From positions 1 through 38,928 of the forward strand of contig CAMIMK010000001.1 of assembly GCA_946221765.1 (NCBI GenBank): DNA of 38,928 bases, read 5' to 3'. Each line of letters starts with the position of its first letter. The first letter of the stretch is position 1. Origin of the DNA: an uncultured Rhodovulum sp. (GTDB lineage: Bacteria; Pseudomonadota; Alphaproteobacteria; Rhodobacterales; Rhodobacteraceae). This document shows, one piece after another, positions 576-23,359 of this stretch. A program made the position numbers and the translations under genes. The notes under the pieces were generated by a model. The model was not told where the DNA came from, searched no databases, and saw only the letters and a program-made list of their open reading frames with translations.

Positions 576-2390
576 TTATCGCAGCTCTTGGATTGAACCC
601 CGCGGAACAGGGAATTCAGCGGATCGAACCTTCGCCCACGTGTCCGCACGCTTCCCTACCTCCGAAATCTGCTGGCCCGGAGCGATCCTGTTGAACTCGG
701 CGTTCACGACAACGGCCCAGTCCCAGAGCAGGTCCCGCAGACCAGCTGAAATCCCTTGCCGCATCCAGATCTGCTCGAGGTCGAGCTTGTCGCCAAGTCG
801 GTCAGCGGCCACCGAAACGACGTACGTGGCGATGTTCACCCATCCTTGGCGGAACACCTCCTTCGCCTCCTTCGTCTTGATCATGCTTTCAATTGCCTTG
901 AACAGAATGACCTTGGCGATCATCGCCCGATACCAGCGGGCATCGAGTGGGCTGGGCACAATGGTCGGATCGTCATCGAGAGCAGCCATGAAGGCCGCGA
1001 AGTTCTTCTCGCCAGCCATGGCGACCTGGTTCGGCTTGCAGCGCCACGCTTCATGGTACTTGGCGATGTCGTTCTTGGTCAGCTTGCGTTTCGGCGGGAT
1101 CATCTCCTTCAGGTTTCGCCTTTTGGCCGGCGTGGTGCCTTCTCTCAGAAGCATGACGTTGTAGGCGCCAGCTGCGCGCTCGTAGAACCATCGCGTTGCA
1201 CCGTCAGGGCACCACGTGTCGTTCGCGAGTTTCTCAAGCTCTCGATGGAACGGGCGGTTTGCCGACAGGTCGGACATTTTCACCGCGTTCTGACTGTTCG
1301 CATAGCGGGACACGTTGCTGATCAGTCTCTCGCGCGCTTCGTCCTGCGATCCCTTGAGGATGATGATCTTGGCCGGGACCATGACGTGGCTCAGATCGAT
1401 GGTGCGATCATCGCGGGATGAGAAGTAGATGGTCGAGGTCGTCTGGCCGCCGTTCACGATCTGCAGACCCTTCAGGAAGGACAGGCCCAGATTCCCGTCC
1501 TCAGTCCGCTCGAAGGCCGCTTCGTCGCAGACAAGCACGAGGCCATTGTTGAAGGCGAGGAAGTGCTCCGGTTCCTTTCGCAGCGTTTCGACGATGCCCT
1601 TGTTGACCGCGCGCTTGTTCCCCAGAAAGGTGCGGATATTGGCTTCGAGCAGGGTCGTCCCGTAGCGCAGATAGAGATCCCGGATGAGCTGCCCGGGAAT
1701 GGCAGTAAGGGCATACTCGTAGTCAGCATCAGGGTCTGGGACATGTACGCAGGGAAGCGCCCGACCGATCGACTGGACGAAACTCACGGCCAGCTCGTCT
1801 CGCGGTTTGCCCTCGGTGTGGCGGAACAGCCTCTCCATATCCATGGCCTCGACGGCCACCATCTTCTGGTGAACCTCTTTGTTCGAGAACCGCTTGGTCT
1901 TGGTCTTGCCATCGGTGATCACGAACACACGAAGTCGGTCGATGTCGCCCCAGCGAGAACGAATGGTCGCAACCAGATCCCTGACCGGATGCGTCGGATC
2001 GATCCTTGCATCGAGGTTGCCGCTTGCCGCTCGAAACAGAAAGCGAACGCCTTCGCTTGCGGTTGCGGTCGCATCCGAGTCCCTGAGATCGTTCAGTTCT
2101 TCGGTCCCGAAATAGTGGGTCACGAAGAGGTCGAGAGCCGTTTCATCGGAGCTGAGCGCATAGCCCGTAATGCGGAGTTTCGCGTTGCCGACCTTGCCGC
2201 TCCAGTGACAAACGGTTGGTGCCTCGCAGATCCCGGTTTCTGCGACATGCTCCATGACCATTTCCGCAAAGACGAGCTCATCCGAAGGAAAGGGGCCTTC
2301 GCCGGCCTCTACGCGCTCGGCGATGATTGTCTGCAGATCGGAACGAAAGTTGCGGTGAAAATCATCGAGGCTCATGTCAATCCAGTCCAA
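576..2390 (-). CDS. mzaE: AIPR family protein (Mza system, last gene)
   Basis: AIPR motifs LLEANIRTFL, FLAFNNGL, LQIVNGGQTT, YANSQNAV, WFYERAAGAY. Start is TTG 2390 or ATG 2375. Confidence 0.9.
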   Translation of the reverse strand: MDWIDMSLDDFHRNFRSDLQTIIAERVEAGEGPFPSDELVFAEMVMEHVAETGICEAPTVCHWSGKVGNAKLRITGYALSSDETALDLFVTHYFGTEELNDLRDSDATATASEGVRFLFRAASGNLDARIDPTHPVRDLVATIRSRWGDIDRLRVFVITDGKTKTKRFSNKEVHQKMVAVEAMDMERLFRHTEGKPRDELAVSFVQSIGRALPCVHVPDPDADYEYALTAIPGQLIRDLYLRYGTTLLEANIRTFLGNKRAVNKGIVETLRKEPEHFLAFNNGLVLVCDEAAFERTEDGNLGLSFLKGLQIVNGGQTTSTIYFSSRDDRTIDLSHVMVPAKIIILKGSQDEARERLISNVSRYANSQNAVKMSDLSANRPFHRELEKLANDTWCPDGATRWFYERAAGAYNVMLLREGTTPAKRRNLKEMIPPKRKLTKNDIAKYHEAWRCKPNQVAMAGEKNFAAFMAALDDDPTIVPSPLDARWYRAMIAKVILFKAIESMIKTKEAKEVFRQGWVNIATYVVSVAADRLGDKLDLEQIWMRQGISAGLRDLLWDWAVVVNAEFNRIAPGQQISEVGKRADTWAKVRSAEFPVPRGSIQELR

Positions 2391-3381
2391 ATTCGTTGAT
2401 CAACTCCGAAAGTCCGATCGAGGGAACTTCGAGCGCGTCGAGGTCGAGCACATAGGCAGCTGAGCGGATGGCAGCTGGAAGCGCCGCGCGCGTGAGACGC
2501 GGCATGTCACCTTCCGCGCGGAACGCCCTTGCGTCCTTCAATGTCAGTGTGCGCCCGTAGAGCGCTGCATGCTCGTCGAGGTACCCCATCACCATGAGCA
2601 GTGCTTCGAACCCGCGTTGCACTCCGACCAGTCCGAACCTCTTTCGAAGTTCAGTCACAAGACTGACGAGCGAGATCCCATCGGTGGTTTCCTCGAAGCG
2701 GAAGGCGCACAGGAAGATCGGCGCCCGGTCACCATCCAGCTGTTCGATGCTGTTGATCCGCGCGAGGAAACTGCCGGTGCGGATCGTGCTCTTCACCTCT
2801 ACAGCGCCCCCCCGAACGTGGAAGTCCTGCGCCGCTCGCAACGGTCCCTGCCAGCAGTCGAGAGCACCCGCCCCAAGGGAAGTGTCCGCCAGCAATCTGA
2901 GCATCCAAAGCTCGCCGAGCAGGCCGATCTGCGCGTCGGACGAAAGAGGGCGGTGTGATCGGGCCATGAAAGCCTGCCACTCCCTGACCCGCTCGAGGAA
3001 CGCCTCCATAACGTCGCGGCCCGCGCCGTTGGCTGCAGTCTCCAGCGCTCTCAAGACATCCACGACCATGATGGCGAAGATGTCGGGTGAGCCCTCTGGC
3101 CGCCTGACGAGAGCAATCGCCGTCTTGCCTGCGAATACGGTCTGCCCCTCGATGCAGGCGACGTCGAAGCCCTTGCCTTCAGGAAGCCTTGCTGGGTTCA
3201 CCGGCCAAGATCCCGGAAAGGAGACGATCAGCGCCTCCCGCCCGAGTGGAAACTGACAACCCGCCTCAACCGAGACCGCGCCCATATCGGTGAGATGTAC
3301 AAACCGCCAGTCTTCCGCCGCTTCCTGTCGCGCGAGCGCTCGCCAGGCACGAGCAATCCCCTCTTCAGTCCACCCAGTCAT
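2377..3381 (-). CDS. mzaD: PD-(D/E)XK motif protein (DUF4420-like), Mza system
   Basis: GLLGELW...WQGP...QDF...AVEVKST...INSIEQL signature. Start placed at ATG 3381 (MTGW), overlapping the Z1 gene end. Confidence 0.88.
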   Translation of the reverse strand: MTGWTEEGIARAWRALARQEAAEDWRFVHLTDMGAVSVEAGCQFPLGREALIVSFPGSWPVNPARLPEGKGFDVACIEGQTVFAGKTAIALVRRPEGSPDIFAIMVVDVLRALETAANGAGRDVMEAFLERVREWQAFMARSHRPLSSDAQIGLLGELWMLRLLADTSLGAGALDCWQGPLRAAQDFHVRGGAVEVKSTIRTGSFLARINSIEQLDGDRAPIFLCAFRFEETTDGISLVSLVTELRKRFGLVGVQRGFEALLMVMGYLDEHAALYGRTLTLKDARAFRAEGDMPRLTRAALPAAIRSAAYVLDLDALEVPSIGLSELINEFGLD

Positions 3382-6232
3382 TGAGGCCCCCCCACAGTAC
3401 GCTGTTGGCAATGTACCTCGAGTTGGAGACCCTTCTCTCGGAAGTGCTTGACGGAAAACTGATTGCCCAGGCCACGACGGGATCGGCATCCTTCAGTTCA
3501 TCGACACCCGCACCCTCGGGATCGAGCAGATAGAGCATGAGAAGGCCTCGTTCCCGACGAGTCGGAATGCCCGCTTCGGCGACGCCTTCCCCGAGTACGT
3601 GACGGATCTGTGGGCCTCTCGGTTCGGACGGCGGCTCCTTGCCTTCGTTTCGATCCGTGTCGTTGCGCCAGGTCTTCTGGCTGAGTTCGAGCGCTGCCTT
3701 CCATTCCGCCTCGGTCAGATCGATGGCCTGATCGCGAGGCGAGATCAGCGTCTTGATCGAGTATCGATCGGTATGTTCGGTGGTGCGCTTGCGCTGGAGC
3801 ATGTTGACCGAGCAACCGCCTACTTTGCGGTGCTTGTCGTCCGGACCGCTGTCCTTCCCGATCAGCGCGACGGTCCAGCTCGTGAGCTCGCGATCCTTGT
3901 TCATTTCCTCGATGAAGTCCGCAATCAGCGGACTCATGATCCTGAAGCTGGCGGAGTGGGTCCTGTAGTCCCGCAGAAACGAGATGACGTTCAGGGCTGA
4001 CACATTCCGCCAGAGGTGACCGTTCCACTTCTGACCTTGTGGAACGAAATGCTGATCGTTCAGATCCGTCGATGGACCGAGTGCGCTGATGAACCGATCC
4101 GTGGCATTGAAGTTTGCAGTGATGTCCTCCTTGCGGTTGGGAAACACGATGGTCTGCAAAAGGTCGCCCGAGTAGGTCAGCTGCATCGCGCGAGCGTTTC
4201 TCATCTTGGCCCGAGAGGTCACCGTCAGCACGGAATGCGATTTCACCCGCAGACCGAACTGTTTTGGCGTAGCGCCGGCCGCGACCATGTTGTCAAACTC
4301 CTGGCGGAGCTCTTCTGCGGCATCGGCGATGTGGCCGAACCACTCCACCATTTCCTGCGATGTGTAGAGGCGGCAGACATCGAGGTAGCCGTCGCGATAG
4401 CCGAACCATCGCCCCATCTGCATTAGCGTGTCGTACATGCGTGCGGTTCGAAGGAAGTAGCTCGTGCAGAGACCCTCGAGCGTCAGACCACGCGCCAGCT
4501 TGTCGCCGCCGATGGCAATCACCTTAAGGCCGGTGCCATCATTTTCGGCGTAGTCGAGTGCGTCCTTGGCCGTGCCGTTGATCTCGCGGACGCGAATGTC
4601 GGACAGTACGTCGGGGAGGACGGCACGAATGTCGGCCCACGAGAAGTCCTCCAGCGTTTCACCCTCGACGAGGGCGGAACGGATCCCCTGCATCCCTGGC
4701 AGAAAGGTTTCCTGATACTCCGTGCGCATGGACGCCTCGAGGTTCTCGAGCTCGATGCCGCGGGTGTAGCGGCCCTTCAGATCTCGCACGTACTCTGCGA
4801 CCTGGTTGACGACGGCGTTCTGCACCGAGGTGAAGCGGGTAACGTGGATGAGCATCGAGGAGTGTTTGCTGCCCTGTCCGCGCAGCTTCCTCACGGCACA
4901 GGCATAGACGAAGGAGCGGATCGCTTCTGCAAGCGAGTCCGGCACACGGTCATCCCCCTGCCATCGCGGCCGGTAGCCGTTCTTGTGTCGTGGCGGCATC
5001 CACGGCTGGAACTCATCGTCCAAAAGCGGGCGCACCAGAGGCAGGTCTTCCGGCGTGCTGGAAGCTGATCCGAAGACACGACCCGGTCCGACATAATTCG
5101 ATGGCGCCGCAAGGCTGGTGATGAAGGCTGCGGGGAAGAGATCCGGTCCGTGCTCCTGAGTCTCCCCACGGTCATGAATGAAGATGTTCGCAAAGGGTGT
5201 CGCCGTGTAGCCGACATAAGCCTTCCGCGAGAAATGGTGGAGGATCGACCGGATCAACCTGTTGATCGTCTTGGGCTCGTGTTCGAGATCCGGGTTGCCG
5301 AACTCGTCCACGACATCTTCACCGGTGTCGACAGATCCGTGATCGGACTCGTCGTCGATCACCATGAGAGGCAGGTTGGTGACGAGTTTGCGACCTGTTT
5401 CGGGGTCGACGTGATTGGCCACACGGTTGCGGATCCAGTGCAGCAGGCGCTCCAGCACCGTCTTGTTCTTCTTGACGACGAACAACCACGGTCGCTGTTC
5501 CGGGCTGATGTTCATCTTCGCGGCAACGGCCGTGTTGAAGTCGCCCTTGTCGCTCCGATTCGTTGCAGCATTGGGACGGACCGACATGTCCTTGTCGATC
5601 AGTCCGACCCCCACTGCTGGGAGCTCGTCAGCATCCGCGATGGTGGCAAAACCGAGAAACCCCTCGTCCAGGCGGATCTGGGTCTGTGCTCTGAGGTTGT
5701 TGTGCAGGCCGGCGAGCACGATGATGATCTTGTATCCAGCGTCGGCGGCCTTGCAGATCAGTCCGGTATAATTGCCTGTCTTCCCCGACTGAACGTGGCC
5801 AACGACCAGTCCGCGACGATCCCAGGCGCCTTCCCGGGTCGGGTCCTCGAGCTGTGAGAGGACTTCGTCAGTGGCGACGTCGAGCGCGTCGAGGGCTGTC
5901 CAGGGGATGCGCGCTTCCATGTACTCCGAGTAGCGCTGCCAATAGGTCCAGCCCTTCTTTCTTTCTGCATCCAGCCAGGCAACATGGTCCTCACCGCTCG
6001 ACAGGGTGGCGTTCTCGCCCACCGTGCGGCTTGACCGGCGGATCAGTTCGTCAACGAGCGCGTCCCGATCAACAAGGGCGAAATCGTCCTCCATCATGAT
6101 CGACAGCTTGGTCAGCTCCTTCTCGATCATTTCCGGAGTGACAGGGCTCTGAGCGCGTTCCGCAGCAAGGCGGAGCATGTTCTGGGCCATGGAAAGGATT
6201 AAATCGAAGGCCTTCTGGTTTGAAATCGTCAT
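3365..6232 (-). CDS. mzaC: Z1-domain SF2 helicase-like/endonuclease protein, Mza system
   Basis: Walker A GHVQSGKT, IDDESD, YVGYTATPFANIFI, HSSMLIH, GGDKLARGLTLEGL, YDTLMQMGRWFGYR. Confidence 0.93.
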   Translation of the reverse strand: MTISNQKAFDLILSMAQNMLRLAAERAQSPVTPEMIEKELTKLSIMMEDDFALVDRDALVDELIRRSSRTVGENATLSSGEDHVAWLDAERKKGWTYWQRYSEYMEARIPWTALDALDVATDEVLSQLEDPTREGAWDRRGLVVGHVQSGKTGNYTGLICKAADAGYKIIIVLAGLHNNLRAQTQIRLDEGFLGFATIADADELPAVGVGLIDKDMSVRPNAATNRSDKGDFNTAVAAKMNISPEQRPWLFVVKKNKTVLERLLHWIRNRVANHVDPETGRKLVTNLPLMVIDDESDHGSVDTGEDVVDEFGNPDLEHEPKTINRLIRSILHHFSRKAYVGYTATPFANIFIHDRGETQEHGPDLFPAAFITSLAAPSNYVGPGRVFGSASSTPEDLPLVRPLLDDEFQPWMPPRHKNGYRPRWQGDDRVPDSLAEAIRSFVYACAVRKLRGQGSKHSSMLIHVTRFTSVQNAVVNQVAEYVRDLKGRYTRGIELENLEASMRTEYQETFLPGMQGIRSALVEGETLEDFSWADIRAVLPDVLSDIRVREINGTAKDALDYAENDGTGLKVIAIGGDKLARGLTLEGLCTSYFLRTARMYDTLMQMGRWFGYRDGYLDVCRLYTSQEMVEWFGHIADAAEELRQEFDNMVAAGATPKQFGLRVKSHSVLTVTSRAKMRNARAMQLTYSGDLLQTIVFPNRKEDITANFNATDRFISALGPSTDLNDQHFVPQGQKWNGHLWRNVSALNVISFLRDYRTHSASFRIMSPLIADFIEEMNKDRELTSWTVALIGKDSGPDDKHRKVGGCSVNMLQRKRTTEHTDRYSIKTLISPRDQAIDLTEAEWKAALELSQKTWRNDTDRNEGKEPPSEPRGPQIRHVLGEGVAEAGIPTRRERGLLMLYLLDPEGAGVDELKDADPVVAWAISFPSSTSERRVSNSRYIANSVLWGGLNDWVD

Positions 6233-7731
6233 TGCGTGTCTTTCGCTGCAAGGGCTGCAACCAGGCCGAGGTGCCGGTCGAATGGGGGCGTGCGACCGAG
6301 CCGCTCGCGCGCCTCGGTCGGGCTGAGCCCGCGGAACTTCACCAGTGCTTCAAACATCGAGGACAGGGTCTCCATCACCTCGTTGTCAGCCGCTCCGGCG
6401 AAACCAGTTCTCGGCGTCTCCTTGTCTTCCGCCGTATCCAGCCAGATACGCTGCACGGGCACTGTCTCCTCGATCAGCCTCAGAAGAGCGAGGATGTCGG
6501 GCTTGAGTGGCCCGGCGCGATCGAGGATCGAGGCGACAAGATCATGGTCACGAGCGATCCGGTAAGACGTTCCTTGTGCCGAGCGCCGCACTTGCCAGGC
6601 TTCGGCGACTGCGTTCGGGCGCGTGCCTGAGGCCGGGGTCACGTGTCCCCGGTGGGCGAAGACCCGCCGCGCCGTGTCGCGTGTTTCTGTTGCGAGACGA
6701 TGAAGCTGGGATCGCAGGCGCACCGGGGGGCTGGCCGTTGATTTCAGGACATTGATCTTCCAATCGGCATCCGCGCTGTTCGGTATGTCGAGCCGGATAC
6801 GAGCGAGCCTGTGAGCTTCATCGCGCGGCCATGGCTTGCCGCCATCGCCGAGGCCAAGCCAACCCCCAGCGAGAAGGAGACGCTTGTTGCGGTAGACGTA
6901 GAAGCCCTCCTGCTGCGTCCATCCTCCGGGCCCCGCCGCCGCTTCCTGTTCGGCAGGCTTGAGCATGTCGCGATGCGGAAGGACGTGGCATTGCCCGATC
7001 ACACCGGTGGTGTGGAGGATCCGATACTCGGGGCTTTCGAGCGCCTTGCCGGGATGACCGACGAGGTACGGGTCCCAAGGCTTCAATCCTCTGCCATTCA
7101 GCGCCAAGCGCAGCATTGGCATTTGGCCATCAAGGAGCCGATGAAAGGTCATCGCAAGATGCGCCTCCACGCGATCCGCGAGCTCGATCATGTCGGTGGC
7201 CGCGAAGCCATCGGTCACGATACGGTCCAGTTTCTCCCAGAGAACGACGGTGCCGTGGGCCATCTGGTCCAGCGGCTCAAGCAGATGCTCTGATCCCGGC
7301 GCCGGCCCTTCGAAGAGCGGCCACTCGGTGCCTGGTTCCTGACCGATGAGATCGAGGTCCCAGCGCAAGCAGACGACCGGTCCCCCTTCCTTCCGACTGG
7401 CGACGGTCAGGCGACGAGCCTGAGAGAAGCTGGCCGTCTTCAGGCCCAGCCCGAAGCGCCCAAGGTCAGTGGCGGCGCGTTCAGTCCTCGGATCGCGAGC
7501 GCCAAGGCGCATGCCGGCCTCCAGAGCCGCGTCGTCCATGCCGTCACCGTCATCGACGATTCTTACCCAGCTTTCTGGACCGGCCCACTCAAGATGAACG
7601 GCGACGTCGCGTGCATTTGCAGCGATGGAATTGTCGACCAGATCGGCAAGTGCGGTGGGAGGCGAGTAGCCGAGCCCGCGCAAAGATTCGAGCATCGAAC
7701 CGGCATGCGGGGGGGCATTTCGCACGGTCAT
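6229..7731 (-). CDS. mzaB: GHKL (MORC/MutL-like) ATPase, Mza system
   Basis: LRGLGYSPPTALADLVDNSI, DDGDGM, DLGRFGLGLKTASFSQ, HGTVVLW, GFYVYRNKRLL. ATGA overlaps with both neighbours (alternative start 7737). Confidence 0.92.
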   Translation of the reverse strand: MTVRNAPPHAGSMLESLRGLGYSPPTALADLVDNSIAANARDVAVHLEWAGPESWVRIVDDGDGMDDAALEAGMRLGARDPRTERAATDLGRFGLGLKTASFSQARRLTVASRKEGGPVVCLRWDLDLIGQEPGTEWPLFEGPAPGSEHLLEPLDQMAHGTVVLWEKLDRIVTDGFAATDMIELADRVEAHLAMTFHRLLDGQMPMLRLALNGRGLKPWDPYLVGHPGKALESPEYRILHTTGVIGQCHVLPHRDMLKPAEQEAAAGPGGWTQQEGFYVYRNKRLLLAGGWLGLGDGGKPWPRDEAHRLARIRLDIPNSADADWKINVLKSTASPPVRLRSQLHRLATETRDTARRVFAHRGHVTPASGTRPNAVAEAWQVRRSAQGTSYRIARDHDLVASILDRAGPLKPDILALLRLIEETVPVQRIWLDTAEDKETPRTGFAGAADNEVMETLSSMFEALVKFRGLSPTEARERLGRTPPFDRHLGLVAALAAKDTQ

Positions 7732-10187
7732 TGGCATTGCCCCCTATCGGAGTCTACTAGACCGAGGCGGCTCAGTTTGCCAATTACTGCATTCCGGCTG
7801 GTTCCCCCTAGTTCCTGCGCAATCTCACTTGCGCTCATACCGGCTGCCCAGAGTTCTTTGAGGCGATCTATCCGACTTTCGGACCAAGACGTCAGTGTTT
7901 GACTCTTTTCTACAGGTTCCGCTGGGCTGTGCTGCTCTCGCTCGGCCGAAGAGGAAGCTTTTGACCCGCGGCTGCTGTCGTAGCCCAGCAACTCCTGGAG
8001 CCGACGCTTGCGCCCCGGATGGGAAAGGCGATCAAGGCCCTTCGCTTCGATCTGGCGAATGCGCTCGCGCGTCACGCCGTAGATCTGACCAATTTCCTCG
8101 AGGGTCATGTCAGAATCGCGCCCTATACCAAAGCGCATCCGGATCACATCAGCCTGACGTTCCGGCAGATCAGCCAGTGCGTCTGTCACGATCCTTTCGG
8201 TTTCTGCCTGGTCGAAGACATCCACTTCTGGAGGTTCGGGCAGCAGGTTGTCCCAGTCGTCAAGGCTTGCGGGATATTCGGCTTCACGCGGGATGCCGCG
8301 GAACTGTCTGACCTCGTCGATTGTCCATTCCAGATCTTCGGCGAGCTCGAGGTCGGAGACAGCGCCACCGACCCGAACGTCCAGCCTCTCGAGGGCGCGA
8401 TTAAGCTTGGTGATCTTCTCGTTACGATGCACGGGGATGCGGATCGCCGCGCCTTCATCAGCGCGCCATCGCATGATGGCCTGTCTCATCCAGTAAGTGG
8501 CGTAGATGAGGAAGCGATAACCACGTTCGGGATCAAATCGCCTTGTGGAACGCTGCAGACCCATGAACGCCACTTGGAAGACGTCCTCTGGATCCTCGCC
8601 TTCCTCCACGTTCCGCGAGGCAAACCGCCGCACGTAAGGCAGGTGCTCGCGGATAAGGTGTTCGGTAGCGGATTCGGAGATCAGGATTTCGGCTTCCAGC
8701 TCACTGGCCTCGGCTTGGCACGCTGGGAACTGCTCCAGTCTGCGGACCAACTCCTTGTGGAATGCGAGAGAGAGTTCCAATGCCTCGAGCGCAGCAAGTG
8801 CCTCTCTTCGTCGTTTGCCGTCCATTACCCGGCCAGTAGTGTGCCACGACCTCAGGGCGTCCGCGGCGGCCATTACTTCGGACGTCTCCGCATGGCCCGG
8901 TCGCGAGGGAATAATGGTTCTCAGGGAAACCGAGCCGGGGTCTCGCGAACCGTCGCGGATGCGGTCCATGACGTCGAGGATCGTTTCGACGGCGGTCTCG
9001 GAGGCTAGGATGCCCAGCTGGAGTTCCTGCTTGGCCCGCATCATTGGCTCCAGCAACTGCAGCTCTTCTGATTTGTCCATGACGAAGCGCTGTGTGCCGG
9101 GAAGCCGCGTCCGACGCGTAAGGGCTGCCTCTATCGCGTCAGCAAGGTCATCGGACGATGTGTCCGAGACGGCGTCCCAGAGGTCGGCATCATGCCCCGT
9201 CGCTTGAGCGGGATCGAAGCCAGCTGCTTCCAGGTTGCGCTGGAGATTGATGCGCAGTTCCTCGAGATCACCATTCCCTTCGCAATGGGCGACCAGGCGG
9301 TCGATATCGTCGAGGGAGCACCGACCCTTTGCCAGAATCTCCTCTGCCCAGGTGAAGCAGAGATCTGGGTCGATCGACATCCGCGTGCCGGTCTGGACGA
9401 CCGCTCGTTTGACCGATTGTCGGCCGCGGTTGCGGACCTGCAGGAAGTCACTCTCTGCACCGTGATCGGCGGCCGCAGCGGCACTGGAGCCGATGCCCTC
9501 TCCGGAAATTGGTGCTTGTGAAAGGTCGAGATCCCAATCCCCGTCCTCGTCATCCGAAACCACGGGTGACGAACTGACGAGCGCAACGAATGTCCCCGAT
9601 GCCGTATCGCCCGCGTACTGATCGAAGAATTCCTCTGGTTCTGCCTCAGCTTCGAAATTCAGCAGGTCATCCAGGTCGTCAACCCTATCGGCTGGCTCAG
9701 TCTCCTGAATTCCCGCGAAACGGTGCTCCCGAACTGCATTGTGCCCGGCAACGACAGAGTCGACCACGAGTGAAACCTCGCGCTCGCTAACCGTCTCCGT
9801 CTCCGTCTCCGTCTCCGTCTCCGTCTCCGTTTCCGGCGACCCCGCAACAAGCGAAGACAGAAGCTGCGCGGTGAGACCGTGACCTTCGGCAAATGCCACA
9901 TCAGCAGGCGTCTGTCGGTCGTGGTTCAGTACGCCGGGGTCAGCACCCGACCGAATGAAGAGATCGCAAACGGCAAGATTGCCCATGCGCGCAGCAAGGT
10001 GGAGCGGCGTATCTCCCTTAGGGTCGGCCGCGTGGAGGCGGGAGGATGCCGCAAAATCGGCAAGCCGCTCGAGCTTCCCTTCGGCGATCAGCCGGATCTC
10101 GAAAGGGCCAAGAACATGGCTCTCCGGTTCGCTCGTCGCCTCGTCGCGACTGCCGAAGATGCGGGACAGTCTATCCATGATCTTCAT
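7728..10187 (-). CDS. mzaA: Ankyrin-repeat / sigma-70 family protein with C-terminal GcrA-like HTH, Mza system
   Basis: Ankyrin GDTPLHLAARMGN. Sigma region 2 RFDPERGYRFLIYATYWMRQAI...IRIPVH. Region 4 MTLEEIGQIYGVTRERIRQIEAK. Terminal SWSESRIDRLKELW...SRNAVIGKLSRLGL. SD GGAGG before ATG 10187. Confidence 0.9.
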   Translation of the reverse strand: MKIMDRLSRIFGSRDEATSEPESHVLGPFEIRLIAEGKLERLADFAASSRLHAADPKGDTPLHLAARMGNLAVCDLFIRSGADPGVLNHDRQTPADVAFAEGHGLTAQLLSSLVAGSPETETETETETETETVSEREVSLVVDSVVAGHNAVREHRFAGIQETEPADRVDDLDDLLNFEAEAEPEEFFDQYAGDTASGTFVALVSSSPVVSDDEDGDWDLDLSQAPISGEGIGSSAAAAADHGAESDFLQVRNRGRQSVKRAVVQTGTRMSIDPDLCFTWAEEILAKGRCSLDDIDRLVAHCEGNGDLEELRINLQRNLEAAGFDPAQATGHDADLWDAVSDTSSDDLADAIEAALTRRTRLPGTQRFVMDKSEELQLLEPMMRAKQELQLGILASETAVETILDVMDRIRDGSRDPGSVSLRTIIPSRPGHAETSEVMAAADALRSWHTTGRVMDGKRRREALAALEALELSLAFHKELVRRLEQFPACQAEASELEAEILISESATEHLIREHLPYVRRFASRNVEEGEDPEDVFQVAFMGLQRSTRRFDPERGYRFLIYATYWMRQAIMRWRADEGAAIRIPVHRNEKITKLNRALERLDVRVGGAVSDLELAEDLEWTIDEVRQFRGIPREAEYPASLDDWDNLLPEPPEVDVFDQAETERIVTDALADLPERQADVIRMRFGIGRDSDMTLEEIGQIYGVTRERIRQIEAKGLDRLSHPGRKRRLQELLGYDSSRGSKASSSAEREQHSPAEPVEKSQTLTSWSESRIDRLKELWAAGMSASEIAQELGGTSRNAVIGKLSRLGLVDSDRGQCQ
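9791..9832. repeat. Hexanucleotide tandem repeat (CCGTCT)6 + CCGTTT encoding (ET)7 in mzaA
   Basis: Read directly from the sequence; in frame. Confidence 0.95.
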
Positions 10188-11031
10188 GAATGACCTCCCT
10201 GTTGAGAAGTATGATCTGCTGGTCTTGTGGCTTCCTCGCGCTGGGATCAGTATCGAGTCCGAGACGTCTCAGCGCGTAGTACAACAGCGCACGTCGGACC
10301 TTGATCTTCGCCTTGCCGCCACGCATCCCGTAGTCGAGCGCGATGACCTTTGCCTGAGTTTCCGACAGGGCGGGGTGGGGCCCGACCTCCAGCGTGACCT
10401 CGGAATGCCAGTCGCGATCATCGTCGGCTGACGCTTCGCTCTCACGCGATCCTCGAATCTCCAGCACCCGCGAGAGCAGGAAGTCCTTGAAGCAGTCATC
10501 GGTCAGGCAGAGCGCCCGGGTGTGCCAGCGGAACCCGTCGAACGCGATGGCGTGAGGCGCGATCCAGCGCCAGCGCGGCTCGGGGCTAGACAGGGACTGG
10601 TACTTCACCTCGATCGCCTCGGACCGGCGGATGGCGCCGACAACCGAGCGAAGTGTCACCGGCTCAACGCCGCGAACCGGCGTCGGGGCGGATGCGTAGG
10701 GTGGCAGGTCAGGGATCCAGCAATCTTCGCGCTCCAGCACATCGTCGGCAACCAAGCGAATTTGGGCGAGGTAGTGCGCTGCGTCCGGCGGGCGGAACTT
10801 GCAGTCGAAGTCTGGGCCGCGGACGTAGGTCCGCGCGCTCTTGTCGTAGACCATGTTGTCCGGTGCCAGCGCGATGTAGCGGTTCAGGTCCGAGGATGCC
10901 TGGTTCACCGAGACGCCGAACTGCTGCATCACGTCGATACGATTGACGTGTCCCTCCCAGAACAGACGGAACTCGATGAACTCGAGGCGCTGCTCAATCC
11001 CCCAGCGAAGTTCGGCCTTGTCCCGGTCCAC
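10171..11031 (-). CDS. WYL-domain transcriptional regulator, CapW-like (wHTH-WYL-dimerisation)
   Basis: QRLEFIEFRLFWEGHVNR...FGVSVNQASSDL wHTH. WYL core YQSLSSPEPRWRWIAPHAIAFDGFRWHTRA...FKDFLLSR. Start placed at GTG 11031 with GGGAG SD upstream. Overlaps the mzaA start. Confidence 0.9.
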   Translation of the reverse strand: MDRDKAELRWGIEQRLEFIEFRLFWEGHVNRIDVMQQFGVSVNQASSDLNRYIALAPDNMVYDKSARTYVRGPDFDCKFRPPDAAHYLAQIRLVADDVLEREDCWIPDLPPYASAPTPVRGVEPVTLRSVVGAIRRSEAIEVKYQSLSSPEPRWRWIAPHAIAFDGFRWHTRALCLTDDCFKDFLLSRVLEIRGSRESEASADDDRDWHSEVTLEVGPHPALSETQAKVIALDYGMRGGKAKIKVRRALLYYALRRLGLDTDPSARKPQDQQIILLNREVIHEDHG

Positions 11032-11042
11032 GTTGCGCTCCC

Positions 11043-11088
11043 GCCCAGACCTGCGCGCACGCGAACTGTGCGCGCCCAATTTCTGGGC
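11043..11088. promoter_or_regulatory. Inverted repeat upstream of the WYL gene, candidate operator
   Basis: GCGCGCAC-N7-GTGCGCGC (11053-11075) flanked by GCCCAGA (11043-11049) and TCTGGGC (11082-11088). Confidence 0.45.
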
Positions 11089-11151
11089 TTTCTTGGACCG
11101 TAGCCGTGAGGGATTGCGCAATCAATCGAAAAGGGGCGCGTCGGGGCGCGA

Positions 11152-12305
11152 TTATCCCAAGGATTGCCTGAGGTTCTGCGCCACCGCATCGGCAGCCATC
11201 CGCACCGGCTCGGCCGCCAGATGGGCGTAGCGCGCCGTGGTCTGGACCTGCGTGTGGCCAAGGAGCTTGCCGATCATCGGCAGTCCCTGACCCGACGCCA
11301 CGGCCGCGGACGCGAAGGTGTGACGCAGGTCGTGGATGCGGACGTCCTTGACGCCGGCGCGGGCACGGACGCGCTGCCAGAAGGGCTGCAGATCGCTGAG
11401 GCGCTTGCCCGGCGGGTGCCGGTGATGACCCACGGGTTCCCGTCGATGCGCTGGGCGTCGCGCAGTAGTTCGACGGCGGGCTGTCCGAGATGCACGACCT
11501 TGGCGCCGGACTTGGAATCCGGCAGGCGTAGGACGCGCTCGGCCAGATCGACGTATGCCCACTTCAACGTCATGATCTCGTTCAGCCGACACCCGGTCAG
11601 GATCAGCAGACGGGCGGCGAGGATTGCCGATGGCAGTTCGATCCGCTCCGCCTCCATCTCGCGCAGCACCTCGCCGATCGGGCGCAGTTCCGCCGCGCTG
11701 AGGAAACGCTCGCGCTTCTCCTCGGAGTACTTCCGGATGTGCTTTCGCGGATTGGTTCCGTCCGGACGCAGGCCCCACATCTCGGCGAGGCTGAACATCT
11801 TCGAGACCACTTCGAGGCAGCGGTTCGCCTGATAGGGGATATGGCGGAGGTCGTGGTGGAACTTCGCCACGTCCGCCCGGGTGGTGCCCGTGACCGTCAG
11901 CTGCCCGAGCGCGGGCAGGATGAAGCGTTCGAGGTTCCGGCGATATTCCTTGGCTGTGCTGGCCTTCACGCGGATCGCGATGTGTTCCCTGTCGAACCGC
12001 TCCGCCAGCTCCTTCACCGTGATCGCCTTGCGGCCTGCATCGCGTTCGGCGGCGGGGTCCTCGCCATTGCGGGCGGCGGCGACGATGGAGATGGCGCGGT
12101 TGCGCGCCTGCTCGCAGGTCAGGACCGTGCTGGGCCCGAGGCTGATCCGCCGGGACCGGCGTCCGGCGCGATACTGGACTACGTAGCCCTTGCGCCCGCT
12201 TGGCAGCACGCGCAGCCCGAAGCCAGGGATCTCGCTGTCCCAGACGAAGTATTCGGCGGAGCGGGATTCTGCGGCGTCGACGAGGCGTTTGGTGATCTTG
12301 GGCAT
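11152..12305 (-). pseudogene. Tyrosine integrase with N-terminal arm-binding domain, frameshifted near 11415
   Basis: N-terminus MPKITKRLVD...WDSEIPGFGLRV and TGCRLNEI are in one frame. HDLRHTFAS, LLGHTQ and TARYAH are in another. The junction GGC ACC CG CCG GGC AAG lacks one base. Confidence 0.85.
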
Positions 12306-14149: not shown

Positions 14150-14194
14150 CTCATAACCTGAAGGCCGCAGGTTCAAATCCTGCCCCCGCAACCA
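14150..14194 (+). tRNA. tRNA-Met(CAT) 3' half only (att site fragment, not a functional gene)
   Basis: CTCATAACCTGAAGGCCGCAGGTTCAAATCCTGCCCCCGCAACCA = anticodon loop, T arm, acceptor 3' strand and CCA of an initiator-type tRNA-Met. Upstream sequence has no D arm or acceptor 5' strand. Confidence 0.9.
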
Positions 14195-15812
14195 TCTCAA
14201 ATTGCGATCGGCCCGCCCCAAAGGCGGGCCTTTTGCTGTCCGCAGAGATCGCAAGGATTCCAGCCAGATCGCCGCGGACGTTGATCTGCAGCTGCTCACC
14301 CTCGGGCGTCAGCACGATCTCCTTCACCAGCGAGCGCAGCACCTCGGCGGCCTCCGTCCGTTCCGCGTCGGACTCGCCGTGGAGCGCCGCGTACAGCTCG
14401 TCGACCTTGCTGTGGTAGTGGTGCGCCATGTTGGGGTGCAGCAGCGGCGGCGGGTCCTCCGCCACTTGAAGCTGCGACCGCAATTCTTCCTGACGGGCCT
14501 CGAGATCCTTCATCTGCCGCAACAGACGTGTCGGCGGCTCGCCGTCGGCGGAGGCCATGACGAGCTTCAAAAGTTTGTCGAGCTCGCGGTCGATCCGCTT
14601 GATCTCCTCTTCGGCCGCGTCGATCGAGGCGCGGCCTTCCCGGCGGAGCCGGTTCATCTCTCTGGTGAATTCGGCACAGAACTCGGCGAACAGCGCCGGG
14701 TCCATCAGGTGGTGGCGGAGGGCGTTCAGCACGCGTGCCTCCAGCGCGTCGCGCCGGATGTTGACGCGGTTGTCGCAGGTGCCCTTGTTCCGCGCCGTCG
14801 AGCAGCCGACGAGGTGCGCGGAGATCATGGCATATCCCCCGCCGCAGCATCCGCAGCGTGTGAGGCCGGAGAGCAGGTGCTTGGGCCGCCGGCGGTCGCG
14901 GAACTGCTCGGGCTGTTCCGCAACTCGCTCAGGGGCATCGATCCGCAAAGACCTCTGTCGGTCCTTGACCGCCTGCCAGAGATCTTCATCGACGATGCGA
15001 AGCTCCGGCGCCTCCTGGGTCACCCACTCCGATTCCGGGTTCGGGCGTGCCTGGCGCTTGCCGGTGTCGGGGTCCTTCACGAAGCGCTGGCGGTTCCAGA
15101 CGATCCGGCCGACGTACATTTCGTTGTTAAGGATGCCGGTGCCGCGCTTCGGGTTGCCGTTGATGGTGCTGAAGCCCCAGTCACCGCCCGACGGTGCCGG
15201 GATACTGTCCCGATTGAGTGCGACCGCGATGATCTTCGCCGATTGCCCGGCGGCGTAGGCACGGAAGATGCGGCGGACGACCTCGGCTTCCGCCTCGTTG
15301 ATCGCCCGGTCGCCCCGCACCGCCTCGCCGTCGCCGGCGAAGCTGCGGACCACGTCGTAGCCGTAGGAATTGCCGCCGCCGGACTTGCCGGCCTCAACGC
15401 GGCCGCGCTGGCCACGGCGGGTCTTGTCGGCGAGGTCCTTGAGGAAGAGCGCATTCATCGTGCCCTTCAGACCGACATGCAGATGCGAGACCTCGCCCTC
15501 GGACAGGGTGACGATCTTCACGTTGGCGAAGGACATCCGCTTGAAGAGGCCGGCGATGTCCTCCTGGTCGCGGGAGAGGCGGTCCATCGCCTCGGCGAGG
15601 ATCAGCTCGAAGCGCCCCCGGCCGGCATCGCCGATCAGGGCCTGGATGCCGGGTCGCAGCAGCGACGCGCCGGAGACGGCGTGGTCGGTGTATTCCTCGA
15701 CGACGTGCCAGCCCTGCTTCTCGGCGTGGAGGCGGCAGAGGCGCAGCTGGTCGGCGATCGAAGCGTCGCGCTGGTTGTCGGACGAATAGCGGGCGTAGAG
15801 CGCGACCTTCAC
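14151..15812 (-). CDS. Large serine recombinase (integrase)
   Basis: Catalytic YARYSS, DRLSRD, recombinase domain, Zn ribbon CGCCGG...C...C, coiled coil. C-terminus MVAGAGFEPAAFRL is read antisense to the tRNA fragment. Confidence 0.95.
   Translation of the reverse strand: MKVALYARYSSDNQRDASIADQLRLCRLHAEKQGWHVVEEYTDHAVSGASLLRPGIQALIGDAGRGRFELILAEAMDRLSRDQEDIAGLFKRMSFANVKIVTLSEGEVSHLHVGLKGTMNALFLKDLADKTRRGQRGRVEAGKSGGGNSYGYDVVRSFAGDGEAVRGDRAINEAEAEVVRRIFRAYAAGQSAKIIAVALNRDSIPAPSGGDWGFSTINGNPKRGTGILNNEMYVGRIVWNRQRFVKDPDTGKRQARPNPESEWVTQEAPELRIVDEDLWQAVKDRQRSLRIDAPERVAEQPEQFRDRRRPKHLLSGLTRCGCCGGGYAMISAHLVGCSTARNKGTCDNRVNIRRDALEARVLNALRHHLMDPALFAEFCAEFTREMNRLRREGRASIDAAEEEIKRIDRELDKLLKLVMASADGEPPTRLLRQMKDLEARQEELRSQLQVAEDPPPLLHPNMAHHYHSKVDELYAALHGESDAERTEAAEVLRSLVKEIVLTPEGEQLQINVRGDLAGILAISADSKRPAFGAGRSQFEMVAGAGFEPAAFRL
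14210..14234 (+). terminator. Intrinsic terminator downstream of the tRNA 3' fragment (inside the LSR gene, antisense)
   Basis: GGCCCGCC-CCAAA-GGCGGGCC followed by TTTT. Confidence 0.7.
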
Positions 15813-16044: not shown

Positions 16045-16246
16045 GCCGCCGAGTATTGGGGCGGCGCTGCTCGTAAGCAACGGAAATCAAAAGAGAAGAA
16101 CTGACGGTCAACGGCCCGGTGTGGCGTGCTGCGGCGGGAGAGGTCGCGCTCCAGCGTAGAATGGCGGAGTGCAATGACCGGGGTTCAACCAGCGATCTGC
16201 CATCTGCGAACATGCACGCCCCCATCCAAATCCGCATATGCGCACG

Positions 16247-16270
16247 GTATCGTATTGCAAAATGAGATAC
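16247..16270. promoter_or_regulatory. Imperfect palindrome upstream of the TA operon, candidate autoregulatory operator
   Basis: GTATCGTATT-GCAA-AATGAGATAC (8/10 arms) in an AT-rich patch about 30 bp before the antitoxin ATG. Confidence 0.55.
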
Positions 16271-16302
16271 AAGACGCTACTGTCCCACCCGAGGAGATCA
16301 TC

Positions 16303-16602
16303 ATGCCCGGAACCGCCGAACGCAAGGAATACCCAATCTCGATGCGGCTCCCCGAGGCGGACGTCGCGATGATCGACCGCGCCGCCGGGCTGCGCGGCCG
16401 ATCCCGCACCGACTTCGTGCGCGAGGCGGCGGTGCGCGCCGCCGAGGAGGTTCTGATGGACAACCGGCTGATCCGCATGAGCCCGGAAGGGTTCGCCGAC
16501 TTCCTCGGGGCGCTGTCGGCCGAGGCGACACCGGTCCCGGAGATGGTCGAGCTGCTCAAGCGGCCGTCGCCCTGGGAGTCGGGTGGTGCAGATGAGGCGT
16601 GA
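16303..16602 (+). CDS. DUF1778 ribbon-helix-helix antitoxin (TacA/AtaR-like)
   Basis: RKEYPISMRL...IDRAAGLRGRSRTDFVREAA...IRMSPEGF. SD GAGGAG before ATG 16303. Confidence 0.9.
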   Translation: MPGTAERKEYPISMRLPEADVAMIDRAAGLRGRSRTDFVREAAVRAAEEVLMDNRLIRMSPEGFADFLGALSAEATPVPEMVELLKRPSPWESGGADEA

Positions 16603-17117
16603 GGCGCGTGGTCCTGTCCGCGCCAGAGCCGCTGACCGCGGCGCATGACGTTTCGAGCTTCACCTGCGGTAAGCCGACGCTCGATCACTGGCTGAAGGCC
16701 CGCGCGCTCTCCAATCAGGAGAAGGGCTTCACCGCGGTGCTGGTCGTGCACGAGGCTGGTCGCGTGGTTGGCTACTACGGCCTGGCGCCGACGGCGGTGG
16801 TTCCGTCGATCCTGCCACGTTCGGTGCGCACCGGCCAGCCGCCTGACCCGGTGCCCTGCCTGCTGCGCGGCCAGCTCGCCACCGATGTGGGCTGGGCCGG
16901 ACGCGGCGTCGGCACCGGCCTCGTGAAGCACGCGCTCGGGCGCTGCGTTCAGGCGGCGGCGCTGGTCGGGGGCCGGGCGCTGATGGTCAATGCGATCGAT
17001 GACGAGGCGGCGGCGTTCTGGTGCAGGCGCGGCTTCGTGCCGTCGAAGGACGATCCGCTGCTGCTGTTCCAGCCGATCGCCGCGATCGCGGCCTCGCTCG
17101 CCGCGGCGCGCCGGTAG
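16599..17117 (+). CDS. GNAT acetyltransferase toxin (TacT/AtaT-like)
   Basis: PEPLTAAHDVSSFTCGKPTLDHWL, VVGYYGL, GQLATD, acetyl-CoA loop WAGRGVG. GTGA overlap with the antitoxin. Confidence 0.9.
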   Translation: MRRVVLSAPEPLTAAHDVSSFTCGKPTLDHWLKARALSNQEKGFTAVLVVHEAGRVVGYYGLAPTAVVPSILPRSVRTGQPPDPVPCLLRGQLATDVGWAGRGVGTGLVKHALGRCVQAAALVGGRALMVNAIDDEAAAFWCRRGFVPSKDDPLLLFQPIAAIAASLAAARR

Positions 17118-18427: not shown

Positions 18428-18556
18428 AAGGACGAAGCCGCTCCGCGGCATTGGCGCGTGTGGCTGGCGTTCGCCGCTGACCTTACCCGGAGGGCATTTG
18501 GCGACCGGCACTTCTGTCCGACCTTGGGGTCTTTCCCTCTCGGACAGGAGGCTTCC

Positions 18557-19444
18557 ATGGTGGAGGAGCGAACCACGCCGCTGCGTGAGCGGATGATCGA
18601 AGACATGCGCATTCGCGGAATGGGCGAGAAGGCGCAGCAGGCGCATATCCGGGCGGTTAAGGACTTCGCCGCGTTCCTCGGGCGGTCCCCCGACATGGCG
18701 ACGCCCGAAGACCTGCGCGCCTACCAGCTCCACATGACTGACGCCGGGATCACGCCTCCCACGTTCAACGCGCGTATCGTGGCGTTGCGCTTCTTCTTCG
18801 GCATGACCTGTGGGCGCGAGGAGATGAAGCGGTACATGCAGTTCCGCACCCAGCCGCGCAAGCTGCCGGTGGTGTTCAGCGTCGAAGAGGTGTCGGACCT
18901 GCTGACGGCGACGCCGGGACCAGGGCTCAAGTATCGCGCAGCGCTCAGCATCTCCTACGGCGCCGGGCTTCGGGCCGCGGAGGTCTGCAACCTCAAGGTC
19001 GGCGACATCGACAGCGACCGGATGCTGATCCATGTCGAACAGGGCAAGGGGCGCAAGGACCGCAAGGTCATGCTGTCGCCGAGCCTGCTGGCGCTGCTGC
19101 GAGACTACTGGCGCGAGGCCCGGCCCGAGGGCTGGCTCTTTCCGGGCAAGCCGAAGATCAACCCGATCTCGCCGCGGCAGTTGAACCGGGCCTTCATGTC
19201 GGCCAAGCACATGGCGGGCATCGCCAAGCCGGCGACGCTGCACACCCTGCGCCACAGCTTCGCCACCCATCTCCTCGAGGCCAACACCGACGTGCGGGTG
19301 ATCCAGGTGCTGCTCGGGCACGCCAAGCTGACTACCACCGCCCAGTACACCCACGTCGCTACCAGGACGATCCGGGACACCGTCAGCCCCTTCGAAGCGC
19401 TGAAGAAGCTGCAGGACGCGACCCTGCGACGAGGTCTCGAGTAG
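18557..19444 (+). CDS. Tyrosine recombinase (integron-integrase/XerD-like, N-terminal SAM-like domain)
   Basis: TPLRERMIEDMRIRG, YGAGLRAAEV, QGKGRKDR, HTLRHSFATHLLE, LLGHAKLTTTAQYTHV: catalytic R-K-H-R-H-Y intact. SD CAGGAGG. Confidence 0.93.
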   Translation: MVEERTTPLRERMIEDMRIRGMGEKAQQAHIRAVKDFAAFLGRSPDMATPEDLRAYQLHMTDAGITPPTFNARIVALRFFFGMTCGREEMKRYMQFRTQPRKLPVVFSVEEVSDLLTATPGPGLKYRAALSISYGAGLRAAEVCNLKVGDIDSDRMLIHVEQGKGRKDRKVMLSPSLLALLRDYWREARPEGWLFPGKPKINPISPRQLNRAFMSAKHMAGIAKPATLHTLRHSFATHLLEANTDVRVIQVLLGHAKLTTTAQYTHVATRTIRDTVSPFEALKKLQDATLRRGLE

Positions 19445-19456
19445 CCTTCGGGGCGC

Positions 19457-20989: not shown

Positions 20990-21046
20990 AAGCTGCCGTT
21001 GGCCCTGACCCGGCTTCGCGCCGCAGCATGCTCAATAGCAGCCGTT
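20990..21046 (+). repeat. Two-box motif, left copy (AAGCTGCC...CGCAGCAT...TAGCAGCC)
   Basis: Boxes start 46 bp apart. Inverted counterpart at 27780-27835. Confidence 0.55.
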
Positions 21047-21199
21047 CGGGCTCAGAAATCGCGCGAGCCTTCATCGAGGCCCAAGCGTGACAGTAATCTT
21101 CCGGCTGGCACCCGGCTTGTCGGCGATGTTACCGCTTGCGAGCCGATGCAAGAATTGCGTTTGTTCTCGTTTTGTGCCAAAATTGTGAGGGAGGCGGTG

Positions 21200-23194: not shown

Positions 23195-23257
23195 TTCTCT
23201 GCGTTGCGACCCGACTCGGACTGAGTCCCAGCTGCAACGAGACAGAGAATCTCAGCC
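23189..23257. other. 69-nt imperfect inverted repeat between the two cargo units
   Basis: GGCTGA-TTCTCTG-CGTTGC...GACTC-N5-GAGTC...GCAACG-aga-CAGAGAA-tc-TCAGCC. Confidence 0.7.
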
Positions 23258-23359
23258 CTCAAAACCGGTTTCGCTGGCGCCTCAGCCCGCGACGTTGCTA
23301 AACAATGGGGAAAGGCGCGCGATCGTAGACTGCGTCCAGAAAGTCGTAAAGGCTCAAAT

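Follow-up and report, generated by a model that had tools for sequence, protein, structure and literature searches.

The 38,928-nucleotide stretch analysed here (the window; uncultured Rhodovulum sp., GCA_946221765.1, contig CAMIMK010000001.1) carries an operon of the anti-phage defence system MZA, and the MzaA-type ankyrin-sigma protein encoded by the first gene of this operon ends in a GcrA-type DNA-binding domain. The identity of this C-terminal domain is confirmed. Comparison of homologous sequences argues that the fusion is a real variant of a known defence system, selected and repeatedly acquired. As to its function, we tentatively propose a tethered reader that would add affinity for CcrM-methylated GANTC near the site of sigma region 4, an explanation to which we give a little less than an even chance.

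Identity and conservation of the domain

A preliminary description of the window had likened the end of MzaA to the helix-turn-helix at the N-terminus of GcrA, and this assignment holds. Translation of 7758-7889 on the minus strand returns exactly the 44 residues quoted in that description, which are residues 767-810 of the 819-residue open reading frame (ORF) at 7728-10187. The comparison with the Pfam GcrA family proposed there was run on the tail alone and gave a match to PF07750 well above the cut-off (E 5.7e-19; 69.5 against 26.9 bits), spanning positions 2-50 of the 155-position profile; the ORF stops 9 residues past the match. Within the PDB the closest sequence is that of 5yiu, the DNA-binding domain of Caulobacter GcrA (E 7.8e-14). 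In agreement with this, Foldseek ranks 5yiv first for the AlphaFold model of the tail (mean predicted local distance difference test score, pLDDT, 81.9), at 0.9 A over 44 columns with 61% identity and E 1.2e-3. In the model of full-length MzaA the three-helix domain folds separately (pLDDT ~80-86), and residues 738-765 preceding it have pLDDT <50. This linker is 33-49 residues long as delimited in an alignment of 43 tails, and among these 43 proteins the mean identity is 0.45 in the linker, 0.84 in the domain and 0.85 in the sigma core. The sigma-interacting zinc finger of GcrA and its basic patch are absent from the tail, the Pfam match being confined to profile positions 2-50, and the score with the NCBIfam model NF050816 is 60 bits, its cut-off being 280.

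The fusion is not an assembly artefact, since contigs assembled independently span the junction. One such contig, 601 bases long and from another run, covers 7618-8218 with zero differences, and long contigs from two RNA-library runs cross the junction gap-free at ~93% identity, although RNA-library contigs covering the tail cannot show transcription. A fourth run holds a tail-less allele, whose contigs depart from the window sequence at 7721 and 7984. The tail had also been described, by eye, as AT-rich and therefore as a later acquisition. The GC content of third codon positions (GC3) falls to 0.49 for the domain and 0.54 for the tail of 84 codons, compared with 0.68 in the remaining gene and a minimum of 0.58 among 249 operon segments of the same length (Fisher p 0.013 for the domain and 0.010 for the tail). 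Overall GC, at 0.56, lies inside the range of the operon segments. The AT-richness thus stands modestly, and foreign codon usage is supported.

In GcrA the methyl pockets are formed by R33/N34/I37 and by N34/G38, with further contacts from K39, H41 and R42 (PMC5887438); mapped onto the 5yiu alignment, R42 is a base contact, K39 a backbone contact and H41 both. The window keeps both pockets, as do nearly all of the 38 distinct C-terminal copies, a set from which copies below 40 bits were left out: R33 is present in 37, and N34, I37, G38, K39, R42, W3 and W15 are present in every one. The 30 distinct internal copies, located after the ankyrin repeats, differ at the same pockets, with I37 changed to L in 27 and G38 to S in 25. 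Another class of internal copies (14 of 42) has a different recognition helix, and canonical and altered-pocket copies co-occur in one protein. Host-family GcrAs keep I37, G38 and H41 in 23/23, a set biased to consensus because the 30 family gcrA loci are the best-scoring of 322 matches. The invariance of I37 and G38 is likewise partly built into the metagenome scan domains (81, from ordinary gcrA genes) and most phage domains, which were found via the word RNAVIGK; a metagenome scan aimed at the tail DNA gave ordinary gcrA genes. The tail is on average ~63% identical to host-family GcrA domains, which are 90% identical among themselves. The ratio of nonsynonymous to synonymous substitution rates (dN/dS) is 0.12-0.21 in the domain (9 informative pairs from 5 DNA sequences, dS up to 1.0) and 0.10-0.15 in the sigma core of the same five sequences. 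The domain is thus under purifying selection comparable to that on the sigma core.

The body to which the domain is attached is sigma-like: Pfam matches sigma-70 regions 2, 3 and 4, and the best Foldseek matches of the fold are primary sigma chains (E ~1e-14, with low TM-scores). Regions 4 and 2 have fared differently. In region 4.2, T706, R707, E708, R709, R711 and Q712 are invariant in 86/86 aligned proteins. In region 2, D535, Q538, Y562, W566 and Q569 agree with host RpoD and several neighbouring positions differ; the departures, more pronounced than in E. coli MzaA, fall at -10 positions and at positions that we take to be important for core binding in RpoD.

Distribution and exchange of the domain

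The domain was followed in the 120 best of 6,024 matches to residues 360-819, a query that includes the tail and hence favours carriers. A canonical C-terminal domain is present in 42 of the 120, so the tail is not unique to this genome. A divergent or decayed tail occurs in 14 and no such domain in 59, and 26 have one to four copies after the ankyrin repeats. In P0122 a copy lies inside the sigma body. The tail is best described as a swappable module, since its state needs 23 changes on a 174-row tree of sigma bodies (FastTree, many weak forks), a tail-less homolog, P0043, shares 98% identity with the window protein, and the tail and the mzaB start vary together as one allele. A second lineage (P0218 and P0303) shares only 34-35% identity with the window protein, resembles canonical MzaA more closely (498 bits) and also carries the C-terminal domain, in P0303 together with two copies after the ankyrin repeats. 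In the domain tree the copies of this lineage do not group with the 38 main C-terminal ones, a placement that suggests independent capture; at 45 columns, the tree cannot name a donor.

Named genomes provided 32 loci, of which 27 remained after five were set aside (four cut or partial, one a plain RpoD-like match). The tail is present in four and any copy of the domain in six; all six carriers are among the 15 Rhodobacterales loci, against 0/12 elsewhere, and every carrier with a named host is an alphaproteobacterium. Among the distant representatives scanned (62 proteins, including 56 of 88 sigma-looking ones), the majority have no GcrA domain. A DNA search of 400 family genomes found the operon in six, an intact tail in none and a decayed tail in one. 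In 400 Pseudomonas-class genomes there were 9 MzaB matches; the upstream DNA of three was examined, and a sigma ORF was seen in two, neither with the domain. Among 400 genomes of the window's own class, five others have distant MzaB-like matches. A plasmid DNA search with the mzaA 3' end returned short matches only, mostly rpoD-like. The search for long proteins with an internal-type domain had 6 candidates only, and the four returned belong to the MzaA family, which is no proof of absence elsewhere.

Both gcrA and a ccrM-like gene (625 bits, cut-off 830) are present in the host genome itself, a pairing that indicates an alphaproteobacterium, and a CcrM homolog (70-82% identity) was found in 5/5 domain-bearing genomes tested. 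In one tail-bearing genome the ccrM-like gene (G805:C1:641971-642901) lies in two frames, through either a sequencing error or a real break. Neither GcrA nor CcrM is matched in the Pseudomonas and Gemmatimonadaceae hosts of the operon, which also lack the domain; this agrees with the proposed reader, in a comparison with very few non-alphaproteobacterial cases. Two tail-less alphaproteobacterial hosts have both gcrA and ccrM. The co-occurrence with ccrM raised in the preliminary description is therefore observed but hardly discriminates, as tail-less alleles also reside in ccrM-bearing hosts.

Two further proteins combine these domains in other ways. P0270 (617 residues) is not a sigma protein; it has an N-terminal part followed by four canonical GcrA-type domains. 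The Atlas match of that N-terminal part to clusters bearing RapA_C, present in only 11% of their members, is a lead only. P0201 (1350 residues) has ankyrin repeats, three GcrA-type domains, sigma region 4 and a long C-terminal part, with no region 2 among the matches listed. In addition, a ZitP-like zinc ribbon (PF13717) occurs in the N-terminal part of 9/120 MzaA homologs (P0007, P0039, P0058, P0065, P0111, P0116, P0118, P0120 and P0121). Its best PDB match, 2nb9, was named ZitP by a match of residue numbering to PMC5182065. In the aligned copy the four cysteines, R24 and W35 are retained, and R27 is not. By sequence comparison, the ribbon shows a second host cell-cycle module taken up by this MzaA clade.

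Candidate roles of the tail

GcrA binds holoenzyme with a dissociation constant (Kd) below 15 nM, compared with ~270 nM for its best DNA sites; methylation lowers the Kd only 1.4-1.7-fold, and the protein arrives at promoters via its sigma-binding domain (PMC4647560). In a holoenzyme structure its DNA-binding domain is located in the -35/-10 spacer on a flexible linker (PMC9976885). According to these papers the isolated domain is a weak DNA binder and functions only while the second domain of GcrA keeps it on sigma-70; a bare GcrA DNA-binding domain is thus of use only when tethered. The last 84 residues of MzaA consist of a flexible linker and a GcrA-type domain with methyl-pocket residues intact, and covalent fusion may supply the tether that free GcrA obtains from its sigma-binding domain. 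MzaA would become a two-part DNA reader, of a -35-like hexamer through region 4.2 and of a GANTC box with modest methyl preference, independent of host GcrA. Such a module would adjust the location or the duration of MzaA binding to DNA in alphaproteobacterial hosts and would be dispensable for defence, and self-marking would more likely come from a linked C5-cytosine methyltransferase (see below). MzaA itself might then start transcription or guide the MzaB/C/D motor-nuclease; we lean towards promoter-like DNA targeting, given the invariance of region 4.2, which region 2 does not share.

Several observations weigh against the tethered GANTC reader. H41 is replaced in 38/38 C-terminal copies (S in 25, N in 13; S in the window), a position that is also variable among phage GcrAs. 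The contacts of GcrA are essentially the same on unmethylated DNA (PMC5887438), and because the residues of the pockets touch bases as well, their retention is not specific evidence of methyl reading. The closest homologs are frequently tail-less or have divergent or decayed tails, and the pattern may be lineage history, because 10 of the 12 non-Rhodobacterales loci without the domain are other alphaproteobacteria or unassigned. No target in cis was found: a conserved GANTC is missing from the promoter of the WYL-domain regulator gene upstream of mzaA (23 sequences listed) and from the region before the methyltransferase and vsr genes (14/17 loci had the methyltransferase start, and three had any GANTC). 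GANTC shows no enrichment linked to the tail, the observed/expected ratio in the operon being 0.46-0.68 with or without tail, compared with 0.65 in the host genome. Finally, the divergence of region 2 puts core binding by MzaA of this clade in doubt, and the label of single-chain sigma factor is unproven for the clade for the same reason. Of the single-chain methylation-reading sigma factor envisaged in the preliminary description, the GcrA domain and its methyl pockets stand; the fusion is limited to GcrA's DNA-binding half, and region 2 departs from that of RpoD.

The alternatives differ in what the domain would recognize, if anything. It is unlikely, in our judgement, that the tail is a methylation-indifferent avidity module, a GcrA fold captured because this helix-turn-helix is small and mobile, which would lend MzaA a DNA affinity either general or biased to GANTC. 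The slight effect of methylation on Kd (PMC4647560), the tandem copies, the internal class with another recognition helix, the four domains on the non-sigma P0270 and the wide occurrence of GcrA-type domains in phages would all fit such a module. The retention of I37 and G38 in every C-terminal copy, against L and S in most internal ones, suggests instead selection on pocket positions, and no carrier outside Alphaproteobacteria is found among the named matches. Less probable still is a gate between self and non-self, in which CcrM marks would let MzaA license or block the MzaB/C/D nuclease according to whether the DNA is the host's or incoming, and copies with altered pockets would recognize sites that are unmethylated or half-methylated. 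Consistent with a gate are the intact C-terminal and altered internal pockets, both kinds in one protein, and the behaviour of the E. coli system, which restricts T4 through MzaD, a nuclease that cuts phage DNA, in a modification-dependent manner and with no growth arrest (bioRxiv 10.1101/2022.06.16.496414); alphaproteobacterial phages, moreover, convergently encode GANTC methyltransferases (PMC5537653). The gate is opposed by the weak intrinsic methyl discrimination of GcrA (PMC4647560), by near-identical tail-less alleles such as P0043, which are common, by the C5 methyltransferase linked in 17/19 loci and by the protection that E. coli MZA gives with an MzaA lacking the domain (bioRxiv 10.1101/2022.06.16.496414). 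The earlier proposal that the fusion ties defence to the N6-methyladenine (m6A) state of host versus invading DNA is accordingly doubtful as its main job, given the 1.4-1.7-fold effect, the 59/120 homologs without the domain and the linked C5 methyltransferase. About as improbable as the gate is an extension of it, in which MzaA would be a programmable epigenetic sensor whose canonical domains read fully methylated GANTC and whose I37L/G38S domains read half- or unmethylated sites, the Mza nuclease being gated by a cell-cycle mark.

We consider it more doubtful again that MzaA gathers copies of host regulators (sigma region 4, the GcrA domain, the ZitP-like zinc ribbon) as bait for phage proteins, or competes with phage GcrA at phage promoters. 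GcrA-type domains are widespread in phages, mostly as free-standing proteins with a sigma-interacting-domain (SID)-like cysteine motif, and phages encode GcrA homologs such as phiCbK gp222 (PMC3556154); the zinc ribbon in 9/120 homologs and the frequent module swapping also favour a decoy. When viral sequences were scanned for the internal-type domain, 33 loci were obtained, with the word RNAVLSK in none and ISK in two. A bait should track the host protein, and the tail is far less similar to host-family GcrA domains than these are to one another; conservation is concentrated on the DNA-facing helix, and the E. coli system shows no abortive behaviour (bioRxiv 10.1101/2022.06.16.496414). The gating and competition alternatives are both testable, because phages encode GANTC methyltransferases and GcrA homologs. 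Very improbable is a neutral passenger, that is, a recent C-terminal insertion that is tolerated: the absence of the tail from about half of close homologs and its decay in some would agree with that, and the low dN/dS at dS up to 1.0, the conserved domain on a variable linker and the repeated recruitment in two lineages disagree.

The role of the sigma-like MzaA in MZA defence is unexplained in the literature consulted for MZA. Allele pairs that are 98% identical apart from the GcrA-type reader provide a clean handle on this role, as they predict both a DNA target (GANTC beside a -35-like site) and a switchable dependence on a host factor, CcrM. The I37L/G38S copies vary naturally at the two residues forming the floor of the methyl pockets of GcrA and could be used to test the rewiring of m6A-reader specificity. 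If methylation does gate defence, the orphan cell-cycle methylase CcrM would gain an immune role, and the CcrM mimics of phages would be explained by a defence to escape from.

The operon, its flanks and its relatives

MZA (mzaABCDE) was reportedly first described as an anti-phage system by Gao et al. 2020. The window has the five genes in MZA order, all named by PADLOC models, and the mzaA stop codon overlaps the mzaB start (ATGA). All five proteins score below the NCBIfam equivalog cut-offs (mzaA to mzaE: 240.7/800 with NF041931, 652.6/850, 1180/1500, 277/420 and 692/1050), which places them in a divergent MZA clade. Within mzaA, a hexanucleotide tandem repeat at 9790-9835 (minus strand) encodes a Glu-Thr run that is shorter in close homologs, e.g. 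P0043.

Table 1. Features of the mzaA-type gene, its operon and the adjoining genes.
Feature	Position	Strand	Evidence
mzaA-type gene: ankyrin, acidic linker, sigma-70-like body, GcrA-type tail	7728..10187	-	PADLOC MzaA E 1.5e-34
GcrA-type three-helix DNA-binding domain, MzaA residues 767-810	7758..7889	-	PF07750, 5yiu, 5yiv matches
Flexible linker, sigma region 4 to GcrA-type domain	7890..7982	-	pLDDT <50 for 738-765; mean identity 0.45 among 43 tails
Sigma-70 region 4, RpoD-like recognition helix	8022..8180	-	PF04545 E 2.7e-19
Sigma-70 region 2, divergent from RpoD	8454..8657	-	PF04542 E 8.8e-16; alignment to host RpoD; column counts
Ankyrin repeats of MzaA (residues 51-110)	9858..10037	-	PF12796, PF00023
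mzaB, MutL/MORC-type ATPase	6229..7737	-	PADLOC MzaB E 6.5e-170
mzaC, Z1-domain protein	3365..6232	-	PADLOC MzaC 1114 bits; PF10593
mzaD, PD-(D/E)XK nuclease, true start probably further in	2377..3489	-	PADLOC MzaD E 7.6e-54 from residue 45
mzaE, AIPR protein	576..2390	-	PADLOC MzaE E 1.1e-158
C5-cytosine methyltransferase gene, 3' end, convergent on mzaE, cut by contig start	1..507	+	PF00145 E 6.5e-16
WYL-domain regulator gene, likely start 11031	10171..11121	-	PF13280; precedes mzaA in most related loci
Conserved promoter-like and operator-like stretch upstream of the WYL gene, no GANTC	11064..11127	-	Related-locus alignment

The start of the WYL gene is placed at 11031 because of the conserved promoter-like stretch upstream of it. 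A strict consensus promoter scan of the DNA upstream of this gene gave no match; the operator-like motif within the stretch is probably the site of the WYL regulator. On the other side of the operon, 19 loci have at least 2.8 kilobases of DNA downstream of mzaE; 17 of them carry the same C5 methyltransferase there (82-99% identity), and the remaining two have a different C5 methyltransferase nearby. The best PADLOC match of the conserved enzyme is DrmMII, and a vsr gene is divergent from it in the one locus checked. This linked enzyme may be the cognate self-marking methyltransferase, omitted by the five-gene MZA model. Related loci differ in the defence-like genes that occupy the slot between mzaE and the methyltransferase, among them those for an HNH protein (L037:19233-20504) and a PDC-S31-like protein (L007:19615-20502).

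The operon is located on a mobile island, as the remainder of the window is occupied by integrase, recombinase, transposase and plasmid-type genes. A tyrosine integrase at 11152-12305 (minus) is split over two frames near residue 297, with the same break in two related loci (L008 and L026). It is followed by a large serine recombinase (14151-15812, minus), a pair of TacA-like antitoxin and GNAT acetyltransferase (16126-17117, plus) and an integrase with an IS91-type transposase (18458-20650, plus). A second defence cluster at 20999-26783 (plus) begins with a GHKL ATPase that bears a weak resemblance to type II restriction enzymes; an IetA-like AAA ATPase and an S8 protease resembling IetS come next. 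The segment 27959-38312 (plus) carries genes of a kind typical for plasmids or integrative elements, namely those for ParB, a strawberry-notch helicase and Toprim.

No description of a GcrA domain fused to MzaA, or to any sigma factor, was found in the full-text literature searched by titles and abstract openings, a search with most subscription papers outside its reach, including the first Mza paper, and PMC8432527 proved unrelated; the ankyrin-sigma-GcrA architecture itself is visible in precomputed Pfam annotations of public proteins. The protein shares with the MzaA of MZA (NF041931, PADLOC PDLC02203) the ankyrin and sigma-70 architecture, the position as first gene and the same B-C-D-E order behind it. 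Compared with E. coli MzaA it is 34% identical over the sigma core, has a divergent region 2 and carries the C-terminal GcrA-type domain, which the E. coli protein does not have. The window clade is further distinguished from known MZA by the WYL regulator before the operon and the C5 methyltransferase and vsr after it; anti-phage activity has been shown for the E. coli system and is putative in this clade. MutL/MORC-ATPase restriction-modification clusters carry a Z1 helicase, a nuclease, a C5 methylase and Vsr. The window operon resembles them in having the ATPase, the Z1 protein and the nuclease beside a C5 methyltransferase and Vsr, and adds to them an ankyrin-sigma subunit with variable reader modules.

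With the GcrA of Caulobacter crescentus (PF07750; 5yiu, 5yiv, 7ye1; PMC5887438, PMC9976885, PMC4647560) the tail shares the three-helix domain and R33, N34, I37, G38, K39 and R42. It differs in the replaced H41, in the missing sigma-interacting zinc finger and basic patch, and in its attachment, as the domain of MzaA is covalently tied to region 4 and resides in a mobile defence operon, whereas GcrA docks on region 2. The phage homologs of GcrA (phiCbK gp222, PMC3556154) likewise place a GcrA-type domain on mobile elements; those proteins are mostly free-standing and have the SID-like cysteine motif, whereas here the domain is fused to a defence protein.

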